Part shown: positions 1 through 7,251 of the stretch, in pieces
Layout of the letters: each line of letters begins with the position of its first letter
Numbering within the stretch: the stretch's first letter is position 1
Source of the DNA: a virus
Taxonomy: Duplodnaviria; Heunggongvirae; Uroviricota; Caudoviricetes
IMG/VR virus record: IMGVR_UViG_2695420698_000002
DNA length: 7,700 bases
Direction: 5' to 3' (one strand)
Notes under the pieces: generated by a model
Seen by the model: the letters and a program-made list of their open reading frames with translations, nothing else
Database searches by the model: none
What the model was told of the DNA's origin: nothing
Program-made: the position numbers and the translations under genes

Positions 1-2126
1 AACGATACCGACGCCGGATCGCCCTGCTGCCCCCACGCATTTACTGCCCGGACTGTCAGCCTGTAGTTCCCCAGCGCCAGTTGTGTGAAGCGGTAAGTGG
101 TTTCCGTCGTCCGGGCCGTGCTGACCAGCCGCTCACTGCCGTCATCCGCTGTTACGGTCAGACGGAGCAGGAAGCTCACGCCCTTCACCACCTTCGGCGT
201 GTCCCAGCGCGCCAGCACCTGATATTCCCCGCTGTCTGCGGTGACTTCGGCAGTCAGGTGCTGCACCGCTGGCGGCGTGACACCATTCACCGTGCCGCTC
301 TGGTCGCCGTCAAAGTGCGCCCCGTTATCCACGATGGCTTCTTTTTCCGGCACATGCTGCACGGCGGTGATGGCATACGTGCCGTCGTCGTTCTCACGGA
401 TACTCACGCAGCGGAACAATCGCTGGTGCAGCGTCGGCAGCTTCAGCCCCCACACGCTGTATTCAGCAACACCGTCAGGAACACGGCTCACTTTTACCTT
501 CACGCCGTCGGTGACGGACTGGACCTCCACGCTGACCGGATTCCCCTGCCCGTCAACCAGGCTTATCAGCGTGGTGCCGGAGGATGGCAGCGTGATTTCA
601 CGGTCGAGCGTCAGCGTCCGGGTCTGGCTGTTCACCGCCAGCACGCGCCCGCCGGTGCGGATACCGGCATAGTCATCATCGCAGATTTCAATGACATCGC
701 CCGGTACATGACGAAGCCCTTCAGCACCCACGCTGAAATCCACGGTCTGCGTCTCCAGCAGTTCCGTTTTAATCAGCCACAGCCCGGCGCGGTGTGCCTG
801 CCCCCGGCTGGTACAGCCAAAGGCATCCATCTTCGTGACGTTACGACCGTAACGGACAATGGCCTGCGTATCCTCCACAAGCTCTGTCGCCGTCTCCCAG
901 CCGTTATCCGGGTCAATCCAGTTCACCTCAACGGCATTATGGCGGTCTTTCAGGGCGCTGAAACTGTAGCGGAACGGCGCGCCATCATCCGGCATCACCA
1001 CATTACTGCGGTTATAGGCCCACACCTTATCCGACTGTCGGTCCTGCACGAACGTCAGCGTCTGCCCGTTCCATACCGGCATACAGCGCATCGCCGAGCA
1101 GAAATCACTGAGCACATCCCACGCCTTGCGCTGTGTGGTCAGCCAGGCATTACAGGTGATGCGCGGCTCCGTGCTGCCAAAGCCGTCCGGCACCGACTGG
1201 TCACAGTACTGGCCGATGACATACAGCGCCCATTTATCCACATCTGCCGCACCAAGACGTTTCCCCATGCCATAGCGCGGATGGGTCAGCATATCCCACA
1301 GACACCAGGCCATGTTGTTGCTGTATGCCGGTTTTAACGTTCCGTCCCAGATACCGCTGTATTGCCGCGTCTGCGGATTATAGTTCGACGGCACCTGCAG
1401 AATGCGCCCGCGAAGATGATAATTACGGCTCACCTGCTGGCTGCCGAACTGCTCCGAATCCACCTGTACGCCGACCAGTGCCGTGTTCGGGTAGCACTGT
1501 TTCACATCGATGATTTCGGTGTATGACGACCAGAGCGTTTTGTTCTGCAGCTGGTCTGTGGTGCTGTCCGGTGTCATCCTGCGCATCCGGATATTAAACG
1601 GGCGCGGCGGCAGGTTATCCACCACCACCGAGGCCAGATACTGCGAGGTGGTTTTGCCCTTAATGGTGATGTCTTTTTCCGTCACCCAGCCACCGTTACG
1701 CTGTATCTGAACCAGCAGGCGAACTTCAGACGGATTCCTGTCTCCCTTTGAGGTGGTTTCCACCAGTGCCTGTACACCGAAGGTAAAACGCAGTCGGTCA
1801 ATGTTTGCCGACGTGATGGTCCGGGTGATCGGCGTGTCATATTTCACTTCCGTACCCAGCACCGTCTCGGAGCCGGAGGATTCAAATCCCTCCGGCGGTG
1901 ACTGCTCCTGCTCACCTGCCCGGAACACCACCGTGACGCCGGAGATGTTGGTATTCCCCTCACTGTCCAGCACCGGCGTACTGTTCAGCAGCACGCTTTT
2001 TAATCCATCCACCGGACCTTCAACCGGCCCTTCGCTGATGGCATCGATCACACTCAGCAGCTGCGTGGACTTCAGGTTGTCCTTCGCTTCGCGCGGGGTA
2101 TGCCCCTTACTGCTGCCTTTACCCAT
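1..2126 (-). CDS. J: Tail-tip host-specificity / central tail fibre protein (lambda gpJ-type), N-terminal ~708 codons; 3' end beyond window start
   Basis: Minus-strand ATG at 2126 (plus 'cat' 2124-2126) encodes MGKGSSKGHTPREAKDNLKSTQ. The ORF track lists no minus-strand ORF anywhere in 1-2186, consistent with this frame staying open to the window edge. My own translation of the reverse complement gives PAYSNNMAWCLWDMLTHPRYGMG (~1270-1340) and LTVRAVNAWGQQGDPASVSF (1-59), both matching lambda gpJ as I recall it. gpJ is 1132 aa, so the receptor-binding C-terminus is outside the window. Confidence 0.9.
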   Translation of the reverse strand, partial: MGKGSSKGHTPREAKDNLKSTQLLSVIDAISEGPVEGPVDGLKSVLLNSTPVLDSEGNTNISGVTVVFRAGEQEQSPPEGFESSGSETVLGTEVKYDTPITRTITSANIDRLRFTFGVQALVETTSKGDRNPSEVRLLVQIQRNGGWVTEKDITIKGKTTSQYLASVVVDNLPPRPFNIRMRRMTPDSTTDQLQNKTLWSSYTEIIDVKQCYPNTALVGVQVDSEQFGSQQVSRNYHLRGRILQVPSNYNPQTRQYSGIWDGTLKPAYSNNMAWCLWDMLTHPRYGMGKRLGAADVDKWALYVIGQYCDQSVPDGFGSTEPRITCNAWLTTQRKAWDVLSDFCSAMRCMPVWNGQTLTFVQDRQSDKVWAYNRSNVVMPDDGAPFRYSFSALKDRHNAVEVNWIDPDNGWETATELVEDTQAIVRYGRNVTKMDAFGCTSRGQAHRAGLWLIKTELLETQTVDFSVGAEGLRHVPGDVIEICDDDYAGIRTGGRVLAVNSQTRTLTLDREITLPSSGTTLISLVDGQGNPVSVEVQSVTDGVKVKVSRVPDGVAEYSVWGLKLPTLHQRLFRCVSIRENDDGTYAITAVQHVPEKEAIVDNGAHFDGDQSGTVNGVTPPAVQHLTAEVTADSGEYQVLARWDTPKVVKGVSFLLRLTVTADDGSERLVSTARTTETTYRFTQLALGNYRLTVRAVNAWGQQGDPASVS

Positions 2127-2147
2127 TCGTCATGCTCCATAAACGAT

Positions 2148-2168
2148 AAAACCGCCCGGAGGCGATTT
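2148..2168 (-). other. Imperfect hairpin in the I'-J intergenic spacer (copy 1)
   Basis: aaaaccgcc-cgga-ggcgattt: a 4-bp perfect GC core with flanking A/T pairs and one C.A mismatch. It sits in the ~60-nt gap between the I' stop (2187-2189) and the J start (2126). Confidence 0.3.
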
Positions 2169-2186
2169 CACATAAAACATTTTGCA

Positions 2187-2898
2187 TCAGCGACCAATCA
2201 CCACAACCTGACCACCGTCCCCTTCGTCTGCCGTGCTGATCTCCTGAGATACCACACGTGACCCCACGCGCATTTCACCATACAGAACAGGCATAACATT
2301 GCCCTGGGCAACCATGTTATCCAGTGAGGAGAAATAGGTGTTCTGCTTACCGTTATCCGTTGTCTGTGTGCGGGGAGTTCTGGCTTTCGGTGCCAGCATC
2401 TGAGCCACACCGCCGAGCACCATACTGGCACCGAGAGAAAACAGAATGCCGGTCATACCACCGGCACCAATGGCAGCCCCCCATGCTGCNNNNNNNNNNN
2501 NNNNNNNNNNNNNNNNNNNNNNNNNCTGCAAGGGTGGCTCCGGCGGTAAAGAATGATCCGGCAATGGCGGCTGCTCCCAGGACAATCTGGAATACACCAC
2601 CTGACTTGGCCCCGGCGACTCTGGGAACAATATGAATCACAGCGCCGTCAGGCAGAGCCTCATGTAACTGTGCCGTTAATCCGGACGTGCTAACATCCTG
2701 CCCGGCAATACGCACCTGATACCAGCCGTCGCTCAGCTTCTGACGAAACGCAGGGAGCTGTGTGGCCATCGCCCGGATGGCTTCGGCACCCGTTTTCACA
2801 CGAAGGTCGATGCGGCGGCCAAATCGTTGCAAATCCCCGTAAAGGCAGATGCGTGCCATGCCCGGTGACGCCAGAGGGAGTGTGTGCGTCGCTGCCAT
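2187..2898 (-). CDS. I: Tail-tip assembly protein I (lambda gpI-type, 223-aa allele), interrupted by a 36-nt N run
   Basis: Start at 2898 encodes MAATHTLPLASPGMARICLYGDLQRFGRRIDL; stop is TGA (plus 'tca' 2187-2189); C-terminus is ...ISTADEGDGGQVVVIGR. The frames either side of the N run differ by one, but the flanks overlap by 4 nt (ctgc). Removing the Ns and one ctgc gives a 672-nt ORF reading ...GATLAAWGAAIGAGG..., which is contiguous gpI. Confidence 0.8.
2490..2525. other. Run of 36 N (gap or masked bases) inside I'
   Basis: Directly visible; flanked by a duplicated ctgc. Confidence 0.99.
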
Positions 2899-3422
2899 TT
2901 GTCGGTATACCTCTCTCGTTTGCTCAGTTGTTCAGGAATATGGTGCAGCAGCTCGCCGTCACCACAGTAAATGGCGGCATGATTCGGCACCGATGAACCA
3001 AAACAGCACAGCAGCACATCGCCCGGCTGCGCCGCTGACAACGGCACCTGATACAGCCCTGTGGCCTCCAGATTATCCAGATAGAGATTCTGACCGTGAC
3101 GCCACCAGTCATCCTCACGATGAAAATCCGGCATCTCAATCCCCGCCAGATGGTAAGCATCCCGGAACAGCGTGTAACAGTCCGTCACCCCGTGCTCAAA
3201 GCGCCGCCCGGTAAGATGTGGCACACAGCGGAACTTGTGAATCGCCCCCCGGCAGACCAGCCACCACGGCAAATCACTCTGCACCTGCAGCCGCCGGTCG
3301 GCCTCACTCAGCCAGGGCAGACCACCGGGGTGGCTGTGGACCAGTGCCACAATCTCACCCTGCATCTCTGCCTGCAGCCAGTCTTCCGGCGACATACGGA
3401 AATACGCCTCCGGCTCACCGGA
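2796..3422 (-). pseudogene. K: Tail-tip assembly protein K (gpK-type, MPN/JAMM + NlpC/P60), C-terminal ~208 codons, fused in frame to a J N-terminal fragment
   Basis: Lower part of the 334-aa ORF 2796..3800. After the X it reads SGEPEAYFRMSPEDWL...HSHPGGLPWLSEAD...GVTDCYTLFRDAYHLAG...ASTFV, which is collinear with residues ~40-247 of the full K copy at 4400..5143. Its 3' end overlaps the I' start, as in the intact copy. Confidence 0.75.
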
Positions 3423-3423
3423 N
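3423..3423. other. Single ambiguous base (N) at the J-fragment / K-fragment junction
   Basis: 'ccggaNgaggtggtttcc': the left flank matches K (ccggagatatt at ~5030) and the right flank matches J (gaggtggtttcc at ~1750). Confidence 0.95.
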
Positions 3424-3800
3424 GAGGTGGTTTCCACCAGTGCCTGCACACCGAAGGTCAGGCGCAGACGGTCGATGTTTGCCGACGTGATGGTCCGGGT
3501 GATCGGCGTGTCATATTTCACTTCCGTACCCAGCACCGTCTCGGAGCCGGAGGATTCAAAACCCTCCGGCGGTGTCTGCTCCTGCTCACCTGCACGGAAC
3601 ACCACCGTAACACCGGAAAAGTTTGTCTTCCCCTCGCTGTCCAGGACCGGCGTACCGTTCAGCAGCACGCTTTTTAATCCATCCACCGGACCGTCAACCG
3701 GCCCTTCGCTGATGGCATCAATCACACTCAGCAACTGCGTGGATTTCAGGTTGTCCTTCGCTTCGCGCGGGGTATGCCCCTTACTGCTGCCTTTACCCAT
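3424..3800 (-). pseudogene. J: Host-specificity protein J, N-terminal ~126-codon fragment (second, diverged copy)
   Basis: ATG at 3800 encodes MGKGSSKGHTPREAKDNLKSTQLLSVIDAISEGP...RLRLTFGVQALVETT, then switches to K sequence at the N at 3423. It differs from the copy at 1750-2126 by several substitutions, seen in the paired antisense ORFs 1753..2142 and 3427..3816. Confidence 0.75.
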
Positions 3801-3822
3801 TCCTCACGCTCCATAAACGACA

Positions 3823-3842
3823 AAACCGCCCGCAGGCGGTTT
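3823..3842 (-). other. Perfect 8-bp hairpin in the I-J intergenic spacer (copy 2)
   Basis: aaaccgcc-cgca-ggcggttt. On the sense (minus) strand it is followed by TTTTGTCGTTT and lies ~20 nt upstream of the J-fragment ATG. Possible RNA structure or weak attenuator; function not established. Confidence 0.35.
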
Positions 3843-3860
3843 CACATAAAACATTTTGCA

Positions 3861-4502
3861 TCAGCGACCAATCACCACAACCTGACCACCATCCCCTTCG
3901 TCTGCCGTGCTGATCTCCTGAGAAACCACACGTGACCCCACGCGCATTTCACCGTACAGAACGGGCAGAACATTGCCCTGGGCAACCATGTTATCCAGTG
4001 ACGAGAAATACGTGTTCTGCTTACCGTTATCCGTTGTCTGTGTACGGGGAGTTCTGGCTTTCGGTGCCAGCATCTGTGCAACACCGCCAAGCGTCATACT
4101 GGCACCGAGAGAAAACAGCAGATTACTCGCCATAATTCCTACCCCCGGCATCCATATAGCAACCGCCATAACAGCCGCCCCCAGCACCGCCTGAAACACA
4201 CCGCCACTTTTAGCTCCCACCAGACGCGGTACTATGTGGATCACTGCACCATTTGCCAGCGGCTCATTAAGACGGGCAGACAATTCGGTTTCACCTGCAT
4301 CACGCCCGGCAATGCGCACCTGATACCAGCCGTCACTCAGTTTCTGACGAAACGCCGGGAGCTGTGTGGCCAGTGCCCGGATGGCTTCAGCCCCCGTTTT
4401 CACACGAAGGTCGATGCGGCGACCAAATCGTTGTAAATCCCCGTAAAGGCAGATGCGCGCCATGCCCGGTGACGCCAGAGGGAGTGTGTGCGTCGCTGCC
4501 AT
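3861..4502 (-). CDS. I: Tail-tip assembly protein I (gpI-type), 213-aa allele
   Basis: Complete ORF from MAATHTLPLASPGMARICLYGDLQRFGRRIDL to ...ISTADEGDGGQVVVIGR. It is 10 aa shorter than the I' allele, with the difference in the hydrophobic Gly/Ala-rich central segment. Confidence 0.9.
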   Translation of the reverse strand: MAATHTLPLASPGMARICLYGDLQRFGRRIDLRVKTGAEAIRALATQLPAFRQKLSDGWYQVRIAGRDAGETELSARLNEPLANGAVIHIVPRLVGAKSGGVFQAVLGAAVMAVAIWMPGVGIMASNLLFSLGASMTLGGVAQMLAPKARTPRTQTTDNGKQNTYFSSLDNMVAQGNVLPVLYGEMRVGSRVVSQEISTADEGDGGQVVVIGR

Positions 4503-5143
4503 TTGTCGGTGTACCTCTCTCGTTTGCTCAGTTGTTCAGGAATATGGTGCAGCAGCTCGCCGTCACCACAGTAAATGGCGGCATGATTCGGCACCGATGA
4601 ACCAAAACAGCACAGCAGCACATCGCCCGGCTGTGCCTCTGTCAGTGCGACACGGTAAAAACCCGTCACCTCCATATTGTCAAGATAGAGATTCTGACCG
4701 TTACGCCACCAGTCATCCCCGCGATGAAAATCCGGCATCTCAATCCCTGCCAGATGATAAGCATCCCGGAACAGCGTGTAACAGTCCGTCACCCCGTGCT
4801 CAAAGCGCCGCCCGGTGAGATGCGGCACACAGCGGAACTTGTGAATCGCCCCCCGGCAGACCAGCCACCACGGCAAATCACTCTGCACCTGCAGCCGCCG
4901 GTCGGCCTCACTCAGCCAGGGCAGACCACCGGGGTGGCTGTGGACCAGTGCCACAATCTCACCCTGCATCTCTGCCTGCAGCCAGTCTTCCGGCGACATA
5001 CGGAAATACGCCTCCGGCTCACCGGAGATATTCACGCAGGGGAAATATCTTTCCCCCTCCGGCGTTCTTACCACGAAGCCGCACGACTCCGCTGGAGCAC
5101 ATCGCCGGGCGTGCGCCAGAATCGCTGATTCTGTCTCTGTCAT
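4400..5143 (-). CDS. K: Tail-tip assembly protein K (gpK-type), 247-codon ORF with MPN/JAMM motif and NlpC/P60-like Cys/His region
   Basis: Starts MTQTESAILAHARRCAPAESCGFVV. JAMM signature H-x-H-x7-S-x2-D is present as HSHPGGLPWLSEAD (residues ~68-81). Cys/His-containing region GVTDCYTLFRDAYH...HAAIYCGDGELLHH follows. The ATG lies 5 nt downstream of the L' stop. The ORF overlaps the I start by ~103 nt in another frame. Confidence 0.9.
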   Translation of the reverse strand: MTETESAILAHARRCAPAESCGFVVRTPEGERYFPCVNISGEPEAYFRMSPEDWLQAEMQGEIVALVHSHPGGLPWLSEADRRLQVQSDLPWWLVCRGAIHKFRCVPHLTGRRFEHGVTDCYTLFRDAYHLAGIEMPDFHRGDDWWRNGQNLYLDNMEVTGFYRVALTEAQPGDVLLCCFGSSVPNHAAIYCGDGELLHHIPEQLSKRERYTDKWQRRTHSLWRHRAWRASAFTGIYNDLVAASTFV

Positions 5144-5148
5144 GGGAT

Positions 5149-5847
5149 TTACTGCGAAAGTTTGTTAATGGAAAGGAAGCCGCCAAAGTTGCCGACGTTA
5201 TTGCGAAACTTACAGCCACTCAGGCATTTGCTGCATTTATCCTTCGTGATGTCGGACGTTGGCTGGTCATATTCATCCGCGACCGCCGGACCGTGATAAC
5301 CGCACTCATCGCCGCGATAGGTCCAGGTGCAGGTGTTGGCCAGCATGATACGTCCCGGAAAAACAGCGCCATCTGTTTCCGTCGGCGTGGACAGTACAAA
5401 AGAGGCACTCACCGCGCTCAGTTCGCTGCACTGCTCAATGCGCCAGCGGCTGATCACCTCCTGCTCCGGATCGGCGTCACTGTTTCCGTTGACGAAGTTC
5501 ACCGCATCCAGAAAACGGGCGTAAACCTTACGCCGGACCACCGTTCCGCCGACCAGACTCTGTAGATCTTCCGCCATCCCGGTGACCATACCGTACAGGT
5601 TAGAAACCATCAGCGTGGGGCGCGTACTGGTGCCTTTGCCATTCAGTTCAAAACCACTCCCCTGAATGGGATACGGCTGATACTGTCGCCCCTGCCAGGT
5701 GACCGGCTCACCTTTTTCGTTCTGCTCATTACAGAAAAAATAACGTTCTCCACCGACCTCTGTCAGATCGATTTCCCAGAGCACCACGCTGGCCGACTGC
5801 TCCGCACGGGTGCATTCATTCAGTGTTTCCTGCCGGATATCCTGCAT
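5149..5847 (-). CDS. L: Tail-tip assembly protein L (lambda gpL-type), 232 aa
   Basis: MQDIRQETLNECTRAEQSASVVLWEIDLTEVGGERYFFCNEQNEKGEPVTWQGRQYQ...CSKCLSGC...FLSINKLSQ. Length and sequence match lambda gpL as I recall it. The C-terminal cysteine cluster is present. The start overlaps the M' stop (TGATG). Confidence 0.92.
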   Translation of the reverse strand: MQDIRQETLNECTRAEQSASVVLWEIDLTEVGGERYFFCNEQNEKGEPVTWQGRQYQPYPIQGSGFELNGKGTSTRPTLMVSNLYGMVTGMAEDLQSLVGGTVVRRKVYARFLDAVNFVNGNSDADPEQEVISRWRIEQCSELSAVSASFVLSTPTETDGAVFPGRIMLANTCTWTYRGDECGYHGPAVADEYDQPTSDITKDKCSKCLSGCKFRNNVGNFGGFLSINKLSQ

Positions 5848-6125
5848 CAGTTCACCACCTGTTCAAACTCTGCGCTGAACTCAACACGCAGCATACTGAC
5901 CCGCGACGACCATTTTGCGCAGGTCACCTTTATCTGCCGCCACTCATAAGGCGGCGTCCACAGAAAGGCTTTCCAGCCCCCGTGCTCTTCCAGAAACGAC
6001 TCCAGTACCATGGCCTCCTCACGGGGGACAGAAAGCGTCACGCTGTACGTTTTCAGGTTGGCATTCAGCCCGGCAGGCGCTCGCTGGGAATAGCCATCAC
6101 CAAAGCGCACCTTTCTTACAGAAGG
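5847..6125 (-). pseudogene. M: Tail-tip assembly protein M, diverged allele, C-terminal ~92 codons; 5' end replaced by N run and K sequence
   Basis: PSVRKVRFGDGYSQRAPAGLNANLKTYSVTLSVPREEAMVLESFLEEHGGWKAFLWTPPYEWRQIKVTCAKWSSRVSMLRVEFSAEFEQVVN aligns collinearly with residues ~18-109 of the M at 7261..7590 (shared GDGY, TYSV, FLExHGG, WTPPY, KW, FEQVV) but with many substitutions. Stop is TGA at 5847-5849. Confidence 0.7.
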
Positions 6126-6136
6126 NNNNNNNNNNN
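6126..6136. other. Run of 11 N at the K-fragment / M'-fragment junction
   Basis: Directly visible. The right flank (ccggcatctcaatccctgcc) is K sequence, identical to ~4733-4752; the left flank is M' sequence. Confidence 0.99.
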
Positions 6137-6548
6137 CCGGCATCTCAATCCCTGCCAGATGATAAGCATCCCGGAACAGCGTGTAACAGTCCGTCACCCC
6201 GTGCTCAAAGCGCCGCCCGGTGAGATGCGGCACACAGCGGAACTTGTGAATCGCCCCCCGGCAGACCAGCCACCACGGCAAATCACTCTGCACCTGCAGC
6301 CGCCGGTCAGCCTCACTCAGCCAGGGCAGACCACCGGGATGACTGTGGACCAGCGCCACAATCTCACCCTGCATTTGTGCCCGCAGCCAGTCCTCCGGAG
6401 CCATCCGGAACCGTTCCTCCGGCTCACCGGAGATATTCTCGCTGGGAAGATACCTGTCTCCCTCCGGCGTTCTTACCACGAAGCCACACGACTCCGCTGG
6501 CGCACATCGCCGGGCGTGCGCCAGAATCGCTGATTCTGTCTGTGTCAT
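6137..6548 (-). pseudogene. K: Tail-tip assembly protein K, N-terminal ~138 codons (diverged allele), truncated at the N run and fused in frame to the M' fragment
   Basis: ATG at 6548 (plus 'cat' 6546-6548), 4 nt after the L stop. Encodes MTQTESAILAHARRCAPAESCGFVVRTPEGDRYLPSENISGEPEERFRMAPEDWLRAQMQ...HSHPGGLPWLSEAD...HLAGIEMP and then runs into the Ns. It differs from the K at 4400..5143 at several residues. Confidence 0.75.
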
Positions 6549-6552
6549 GGAT

Positions 6553-7251
6553 TTACTGAGAAAGTTTATTGATGGAAAGGAAACCGCCGAAATTACCGGT
6601 ATTGTTGCGCAACTCACACCCGCGCATACACTTGCTGCATTTGTCCTTCCGGATATCCGTCGTTGGTTTGTCGAACTCGTCAGCCACTGCCCTGCCCGTG
6701 TAACCACACTCATCAGAACGGTAAGTCCACATACAGGTATTCGCCAGCATGATACGCCCCGGGAAAACCGCGCCATCCGTCTCCGTTGGTGTGGCCAGCA
6801 CAAAAGAGGCACTGACCGCGCTCAGTTCGCTGCACTGCTCGATGCGCCAGCGGCTGATCACCTCCTGTTCCGGATCGGCGTCGCTGTTTCCGTTGACGAA
6901 GTTCACCGCATCCAGAAAACGGGCGTAAACCTTACGCCTGACCACCGTTCCGCCGACCAGACTCTGCAGGTCTTCCGCCATCCCGGTGACCATTCCGTGC
7001 AGGTTAGAAACCGTCAGTGTCGGACGGGCAGCACTGCCCTTGCCGTTCAGTTCAAATCCCGTCCCCTGAATGGGGTATGCCTGATACTGCCGCCCCTGCC
7101 AGGTAACCGGCTCACCTTTTTCGTTCTGCTCATTACAGAAAAAATAACGTTCTCCACCGACCTCTGTCAGATCGATTTCCCAGAGCACCACCTGGGCTGA
7201 CTGAGTGAGGCGTGTCGTCTCATGATGTGTTTCCTGTGGAATATCCTGCAT
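6553..7251 (-). CDS. L: Tail-tip assembly protein L (gpL-type), 232 aa, diverged allele
   Basis: MQDIPQETHHETTRLTQSAQVVLWEIDLTEVGGERYFFCNEQNEKGEPVTWQGRQYQ...CSKCMRGC...FLSINKLSQ. Same length as L', with substitutions clustered at the N-terminus and around the cysteine region. Confidence 0.9.
   Translation of the reverse strand: MQDIPQETHHETTRLTQSAQVVLWEIDLTEVGGERYFFCNEQNEKGEPVTWQGRQYQAYPIQGTGFELNGKGSAARPTLTVSNLHGMVTGMAEDLQSLVGGTVVRRKVYARFLDAVNFVNGNSDADPEQEVISRWRIEQCSELSAVSASFVLATPTETDGAVFPGRIMLANTCMWTYRSDECGYTGRAVADEFDKPTTDIRKDKCSKCMRGCELRNNTGNFGGFLSINKLSQ

Follow-up and report, generated by a model that had tools for sequence, protein, structure and literature searches.

The DNA considered here, hereafter the window, is the whole 7,700-nucleotide stretch of IMG/VR virus record IMGVR_UViG_2695420698_000002 (Caudoviricetes). 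Its genuine genes all lie on the minus strand and are the tail-tip genes of phage lambda, with M, L, K, I and J each present in more than one complete or partial copy (Table 1). Two copies of gene I occur, a short allele (I) and a long, lambda-type allele (I'), and the segment under study falls within the short one.

Table 1. Features of the window, with positions counted from its first letter
Feature	Position	Strand	Remarks
M (complete copy)	7590-7261	minus	
L (first copy)	7251-6553	minus	
K, 5' part only	from 6548	minus	ends at the 11-N run
Second M, 3' part only	to 5847 (5847-6125)	minus	after the 11-N run
L (second copy)	5847-5149	minus	
K beside the short I allele	4400-5143	minus	Prok-JAB and NlpC/P60 peptidase; overlaps the first 34 codons of I
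I, short allele	3861-4502	minus	213 aa / 642 bp
Diverged mosaic cassette, short allele	4122-4304	minus	codons 67-127, equivalent to lambda codons 67-137
Gly-Gly, codons 100-101, predicted processing site	4200-4205	minus	end of the ubiquitin-like domain
Segment under study	4119-4190	minus	most of helix H1, W-M-P-G turn, first residues of helix H2
J, 5' 125 codons, downstream of short I	3424-3800	minus	starts at 3800; broken off at the single N at 3423
Third K, 3' part only	to 2796	minus	after the single N
I', long lambda-type allele	2187-2898	minus	36 N inside
False gap in I'	2490-2525		36 N; within the H1-H2 connection, between ...GATLA and AWGAAIG...
J downstream of I', 5' 708 codons	1-2126	minus	runs past the window edge

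Runs of N interrupt the window at 2490-2525 (36 N), 3423 (1 N) and 6126-6136 (11 N), and the N joins fuse unrelated gene halves, linking J at codon 126 to the middle of a K gene and the middle of a K gene to the 3' part of M. The window consists of contigs chained together at chimeric junctions, and the repeated M, L, K, I and J genes, each in two to three complete or partial copies, are the scaffolding product of several lambdoid prophages. A genuine tandem duplication of the tail genes was ruled out, given that all three copy joins sit exactly at N runs. Because the changes of copy fall on N runs, I and I' are alleles of different prophage tail modules; they are not neighbours in any real genome and were placed side by side by the scaffolder. 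The complete M copy is similar to the M genes of cdtI and FDAARGOS_944, a type only ~56% identical to lambda M, and the partial M copy upstream of short I is lambda-like, with 96.8% identity to lambda DNA over window positions 4303-6125, so at least two tail-module lineages are mixed in the scaffold. Two plus-strand open reading frames beneath the segment (3973-4194 and 3932-4135) had no PHROG match and were treated as spurious.

Short I sits between K and J and matched the lambda gpI chains of 8iyk, 8iyl, 8k35 and 8xcg at 2.8e-109 by phmmer, and its residues 126-212 matched the 90-residue gpI chains of 9E7M at 5e-48. On the minus strand, 4119-4190 translates as residues 105-128 of short I, AVLGAAVMAVAIWMPGVGIMASNL, just as it had been quoted in the first-pass annotation. 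The two flanks of the 36-N gap in I' are in different frames and share 4 nt (GCAG); joining them on this overlap gives 672 nt, or 223 aa and a stop codon. The best matches to I' in complete E. coli genomes are exactly 672 bp long and align in two pieces at 98.7% identity, and the repaired I' is identical to lambda gpI at 218 of its 223 residues. The proposals that I and I' are two alleles of lambda gene I, that I' measures 223 aa after gap repair and that the two proteins hardly differ at their ends (65/66 N-terminal and 83/86 C-terminal residues identical) were all borne out, with the 223-aa length following, as we infer, from homology and not from the window alone.

The start of gene I is annotated inconsistently, as seen at window positions 4403-4502, at 6001-6642 of locus L002 and at 2601-3242 of locus L004. 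The lambda RefSeq record starts I at the ATG of codon 1 (223 aa), PGAP and several phage records start it at the GTG of codon 34, overlapping the K stop, and many database entries begin at M14 (200 aa), as do Pfam and distant homologues. A start at GTG codon 34 would remove the first beta-strand of the ubiquitin-like domain. The sequence GAGAGG stands 11 nt upstream of the first ATG, and no Shine-Dalgarno-like sequence is present before M14 or V34.

Short I is laid out as a ubiquitin-like domain (residues 14-97), a hydrophobic hairpin (100-146) and a plug or C-terminal part (147-213), and PF06805 (Lambda_tail_I) covers only residues 14-97 (84.3 bits, cut-off 23.8). The AlphaFold2 model of the N-terminal domain (pLDDT >90) matches SAMP1/MoaD beta-grasp structures with a TM-score of 0.67-0.75 (normalised to the target), and the domain ends in AKSGG at residues 97-101. 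For the hairpin of short I, AlphaFold2 predicted two helices, H1 (100-117) and H2 (123-145), linked by a W-M-P-G-V turn (118-122), with a pLDDT of 66-71 in this segment. The lambda-type hairpin was predicted to comprise H1 at 100-118, an extra short helix at 123-131 (TLAAWGAAI), a GAGG break and H2 at 136-155. These hairpin models are of only moderate confidence (pLDDT 58-75) and represent a monomer outside its trimeric lumenal context. The hairpin spans of both alleles hold zero charged residues (residues 100-147 in short I), and the maximum Kyte-Doolittle mean over 19 residues was 2.04 for the short and 1.78 for the long allele; by hydropathy, which was how membrane character was assessed here, the earlier description of a hydrophobic, Gly/Ala-rich, membrane-associated stretch is apt. 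The C-terminal part of short I (83/86 to I') is homologous to the lambda plug (TAPI-C, lambda residues 135-223). In the neighbouring K, a Pfam profile search placed PF14464 at residues 4-98 and PF00877 at residues 111-224, and the JAMM motif HSHPGGLPWLSEAD is intact.

At the DNA level, I and I' are 94% identical over codons 1-66, 56% over codons 67-96, 44% over codons 105-137 and again 94% over codons 138-223; a block of ~70 codons (67-137) at 44-67% identity is thus enclosed by flanks at 94%. Within this block, codons 85-104 encode 18/20 identical residues, yet 17/20 of their third positions differ, compared to 10/66 and 11/87 codons in the flanks. Residues 67-84, which belong to the ubiquitin-like domain, are identical at only 6/18 positions, and the divergence reaches beyond the hydrophobic stretch because the cassette also covers these residues of the N-terminal domain. 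Identity returns at LFSLGASM, lambda residue 139, which is the right edge of the cassette, and this edge coincides with the point (lambda ~135) from which gpI is ordered in every virion structure and contacts its partners. The difference between I and I' is a lambdoid mosaic, in which an anciently diverged cassette of ~70 codons lies between recently homogenised flanks. The first-pass annotation had described a 10-aa indel with length variation confined to the segment at 4119-4190. The net difference of 10 residues does lie within the hydrophobic stretch, but it is not a clean indel; a block of ~70 codons has been replaced, including half of the ubiquitin-like domain, and the idea of confinement has to be given up. 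Since I and I' diverged over the whole block, the "10-aa indel" is the net length difference of two barely alignable connections.

Close relatives of these proteins fall into discrete length classes of 213, 215, 223 and 225 aa. Hybrid hairpins exist among them, such as AVLGAAVMAVAIWMPGVAIGTGGMTGI, and recombination therefore occurs inside the hairpin as well. In two homologues (P0005 and P0047), a short-type H1 is joined to the end of a lambda-type connection (27-aa segment), and in P0090 a lambda-type H1 start occurs in a 24-aa segment. Homologue P0025 shows a 4-residue deletion within H1 (20-aa segment), which, if real, shortens a helix that is otherwise of fixed length.

We aligned 61 full-length homologues, reaching down to ~30% identity and drawn from searches at the 90%- and 50%-identity cluster levels. 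All 61 have residues at lambda positions 104-118 (the H1 core) and 136-156 (H2), and G108, G143 and G150 (lambda numbering) are invariant; short I keeps these glycines as G108, G133 and G140. Near the end of the beta-grasp domain, G96 is found in 98% and G101 in 92% of the homologues, and H1 closes with two adjacent aromatic residues, after which comes a [T/M/N/V]-[G/P/A]-G turn. Gaps and insertions in the hairpin are all located between lambda residues 119 and 135, and positions 130-135 (IGAGGM in lambda) are filled in only 2/61 homologues. From G108 to G143 the spacer measures 18 to 38 residues; 24 is the commonest length (14/61) and 28 the next (11/61). The short allele has the spacing of 24, and lambda's 34 lies in the upper tail. 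By this comparison it is the short allele that is typical, and lambda is an atypical long outlier. The first-pass annotation had allowed for a segment equally variable throughout the family; variability was instead not uniform, and given that indels occur only at 119-135, there is a clear structural pattern of fixed-length helices joined by an apolar connection of free length. One candidate homologue, P0166 (2783 aa with 23 matched stretches), was discarded as spurious, being a translated tandem simple repeat with units such as CTFGDFENLSRRMDLKVFADAIRASIREQL.

The short cassette was found at >=80% coverage in 1414/5426 complete E. coli genomes and the long, lambda-type cassette in 2810/5426, with up to 7-12 matching I-gene loci in each complete genome. 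The short cassette was also found in deposited phage genomes, and both alleles are widespread, already-catalogued "tail assembly protein" genes. The 642-bp short gene occurs at 100% identity in the complete genome NZ_CP065613 and at >=99% identity in nine others. In the NZ_CP065613 prophage (L002), the tape-measure gene (1371-4328) and J (6703-10175) are annotated as frameshifted pseudogenes, and this prophage may be defective. The I gene of mEp332 (PV340541.1, L005 2601-3241) carries a 1-nt deletion after about codon 152, which puts the entire C-terminal plug part out of frame, so that the annotated 209-aa product ends in unrelated sequence; either the deletion is a sequencing error or the phage has a defective or unusual gpI. 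Some carriers of the short allele therefore have frameshifted tail genes (NZ_CP065613, mEp332), and not every carrier is demonstrably functional. A literature search on the origin of the PhiR49_1 and mEp332 records found nothing, and we assumed the viability of these phages from their GenBank descriptions.

To place the cassettes beside their partner genes, 11 loci were compared for the tape-measure C-terminus, M, L, K and the N-terminal and C-terminal parts of J. In FDAARGOS_944 the short cassette is accompanied by a tape-measure C-terminus and an M that are both cdtI-like, and in PhiR49_1 and mEp332 by lambda-like versions of the two. The last 250 residues of J are 100% identical between mEp332 (short) and phiSTEC1575 (long), and J proteins of two C-terminal types, only 54% identical to each other, accompany the long cassette. 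K and J residues 1-400 are 93-99% identical across three length classes in nine lambda-like loci and ~80-86% identical in two Stx phage loci. Where the tape-measure C-terminus of a long allele's locus could be scored in this small sample, it was lambda-like (4/4), both 215-aa alleles sat with a cdtI-like one, and no strict linkage of hairpin class to any partner was seen in the 11 loci. One of these Stx phages, Stx2a_WGPS8 (NC_049944, L011 316-1911), has three regulatory genes between tail genes L and K, encoding an Arc family protein, an Arc-like repressor and the anti-repressor Ant.

The first-pass annotation had called the role of gpI in the tail tip poorly defined, a view that recent structures have made outdated (PMC10721106; PMC11101478; PMC12617516). 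[quoted passage not shown] In the closed state 8IYK, gpI is reportedly traced from residue 101, H1 and H2 included; both helices are predicted to be transmembrane by TMHMM; and in the LamB-bound open state gpI is visible only from residue 167, and H1/H2, now gone, are proposed to have dropped into the outer membrane (PMC11101478). Likewise, the F7 pyocin homologue has two hydrophobic helices for which a transmembrane location is predicted (PMC12874032). Iyer et al. had in 2006 described the N-terminal domain as MoaD/ubiquitin-like and the stretch after it as a glycine-rich linker, and had predicted cleavage of I by K at the C-terminal-most glycine (PMC1779556); the F-pyocin homologue PA0640 loses its N-terminal domain to proteolysis (bioRxiv 10.64898/2026.02.24.707460). 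The adjacent K with its intact JAMM motif is consistent with, though no proof of, the predicted cleavage of I by K.

Collectively, these observations suggest how the segment at 4119-4190 may be understood. In the explanation we favour, gpI consists of a beta-grasp domain ending in Gly-Gly, a charge-free two-helix hairpin and a C-terminal part that threads into gpJ and gpL, with the trimeric C-terminal part plugging the tail-tip lumen and holding the C-terminal coiled coil of the tape-measure protein. The 97% C-terminal identity suggests that gpI of the short allele also forms such a trimeric lumenal plug on the tape-measure C-terminus. The segment corresponds to H1, the turn and the start of H2 of the hydrophobic hairpin, running H1, W-M-P-G and H2 in the short allele and H1, turn, extra helix TLAAWGAAI, GAGG break and H2 in the lambda type. 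The hairpin would be kept in the tip lumen until receptor binding, upon which it would be released downward and, as others have proposed for H1/H2, insert into the host outer membrane. The H1-H2 connection would be a mere tether between two helices of fixed length, with both lengths working, and its length would therefore be nearly free to vary. Building on the protein identity, mosaic structure, family indel pattern and reassortment established in the present analysis, we consider it highly probable that this full explanation is correct, namely, that the segment belongs to the gpI hairpin, that the two alleles carry different mosaic cassettes and that the net 10 residues fall in an indel-tolerant H1-H2 connection. 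The length difference is likely to be functionally neutral, judging from the occurrence of both alleles in deposited phage genomes and from the reassortment in 11 loci.

We considered whether the short allele could be an artefact, produced by faulty sequencing or assembly or derived from a lambda-type gene through a compensated double frameshift, given that the scaffold is of low quality, with three N gaps and chimeric joins, and that I' itself is broken by a gap. A three-frame translation of the variable DNA showed that no alternative frame of either allele resembles the peptide of the other; BLOSUM62 local scores between I and I' were 17-22 for alternative frames and 95 in frame, and a compensated double frameshift was ruled out because only the annotated frame matches the other allele. 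The short allele is not an artefact, since it is 100% identical in a complete RefSeq chromosome and no alternative frame matches, and the frameshift that the first-pass annotation had feared in the short copy drops out on the same grounds; the short cassette moreover recurs in the 1414 complete genomes and among deposited phages, and no length is more frequent in the family than the short one, all of which leaves an artefact with a next to negligible probability. A recent, simple in-frame deletion (or insertion) of 30 bp in an otherwise unchanged gene would account for the near-identical termini and for a length difference of exactly 10 codons. It is, however, hardly credible beside the low identity of the ~70 surrounding codons relative to their flanks, the synonymous sites that are near saturation where the protein is conserved, and the presence of both length classes in backgrounds only 61-68% identical overall (Stx2a_JNE091235, Stx2a_WGPS8).

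The remaining alternatives concern what the connection does. If the stretch were an unstructured, glycine-rich, low-complexity linker that tolerates any length, this would agree with its description in 2006 (PMC1779556), with its Gly/Ala/Ser content of 41-52% and with the two of three virion structures that resolve nothing before residue 134/135; we regard this as very unlikely, given that the 61 homologues share two gap-free blocks with invariant glycines, that charged residues are absent from the hairpin stretch in most homologues, both alleles included, that AlphaFold2 predicts helices in both alleles, that H1/H2 are reported as resolved in 8IYK and are predicted to be transmembrane (PMC11101478), and that the same hydrophobic helices are predicted for the F7 pyocin homologue (PMC12874032). 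The connection length could also be adaptive, being tuned to the tape-measure C-terminus, the gpJ/gpL lumen, the outer membrane or the receptor and kept by selection. The cassettes are anciently diverged and yet both very common, and the long and 215-aa alleles do accompany lambda-like (4/4 scorable) and cdtI-like tape-measure C-termini, respectively. Against this, the short cassette is found with both tape-measure and M types, short and long cassettes share 100% identical J C-terminal domains, the long cassette goes with two J types, K and the N-terminal 400 residues of J hardly change across the classes of the nine lambda-like loci, and recombinants within the hairpin exist. The cassette reassorts freely in the 11 loci, which argues that connection length is tolerated rather than co-adapted, and we consider tuning by selection unlikely. 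We also doubt that the hairpin-connection classes (short W-M-P-G, W-W-N-P and long Gly/Ala-rich) represent an anciently maintained functional polymorphism, which we hold to be quite unlikely; if they did, connection length would set the packing of the hairpin around the tape-measure C-terminus or its insertion into the outer membrane, and ejection kinetics or host range would be altered independently of the receptor-binding domain.

The protein has several known counterparts. Lambda gpI (8IYK, 8IYL, 8K35, 8XCG, 9E7M) agrees with both window copies in the order of its domains and in being encoded between K and J, and it is identical to the short allele at 65/66 of the N-terminal 66 and 83/86 of the C-terminal 86 residues. 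The short allele differs from it in having the other cassette for residues 67-137 and a connection shorter by 10 residues, with the W-M-P-G turn, and it has neither lambda's extra short helix nor the GAGG break. The tip plug protein of F-type pyocins (PA0640; THIP in the F7 pyocin) is like gpI in that its N-terminal domain is missing from mature particles, that it has two hydrophobic helices and that its C-terminal part is a trimeric plug encircling the tape-measure C-terminus; it is, however, a distant homologue in a tailocin and not in a phage, and the two are likened by architecture. In phage T5 the plug domain of pb3, a trimeric tripod, has the same position and role, sealing the lumen of the tube and, it is proposed, touching the outer membrane (PMC10721106). 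The pb3 plug is a domain inserted in the baseplate hub protein rather than a separate gene product and has no ubiquitin-like pro-domain, and the analogy is one of function only. Residues 14-97 of gpI have the ubiquitin-like beta-grasp fold of MoaD, ThiS and SAMP and end in conserved glycines, but in gpI a membrane-type hairpin and a virion plug follow the beta-grasp domain in the same polypeptide; a sulfur-carrier or conjugation role for this domain is not implied.

In summary, the observation is real but ordinary, a known kind of mosaic allelic variation in a structurally solved protein, and it is ordinary because both versions have already been catalogued in thousands of E. coli genomes. It carries little weight by itself, with the alleles present in a quarter to half of the complete E. 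coli genomes and gpI placed by cryo-EM. The only small addition is a family-wide rule on where length varies, together with the recognition of lambda as an atypical long form, because of which what is learned from lambda's disordered residues 119-135 need not apply more widely. For studies of how the hairpin leaves the tail tip and enters the outer membrane, this provides a constraint: the helices are fixed in length and carry three invariant glycines, and the connection between H1 and H2 may be anywhere from ~4 to 24 apolar residues.
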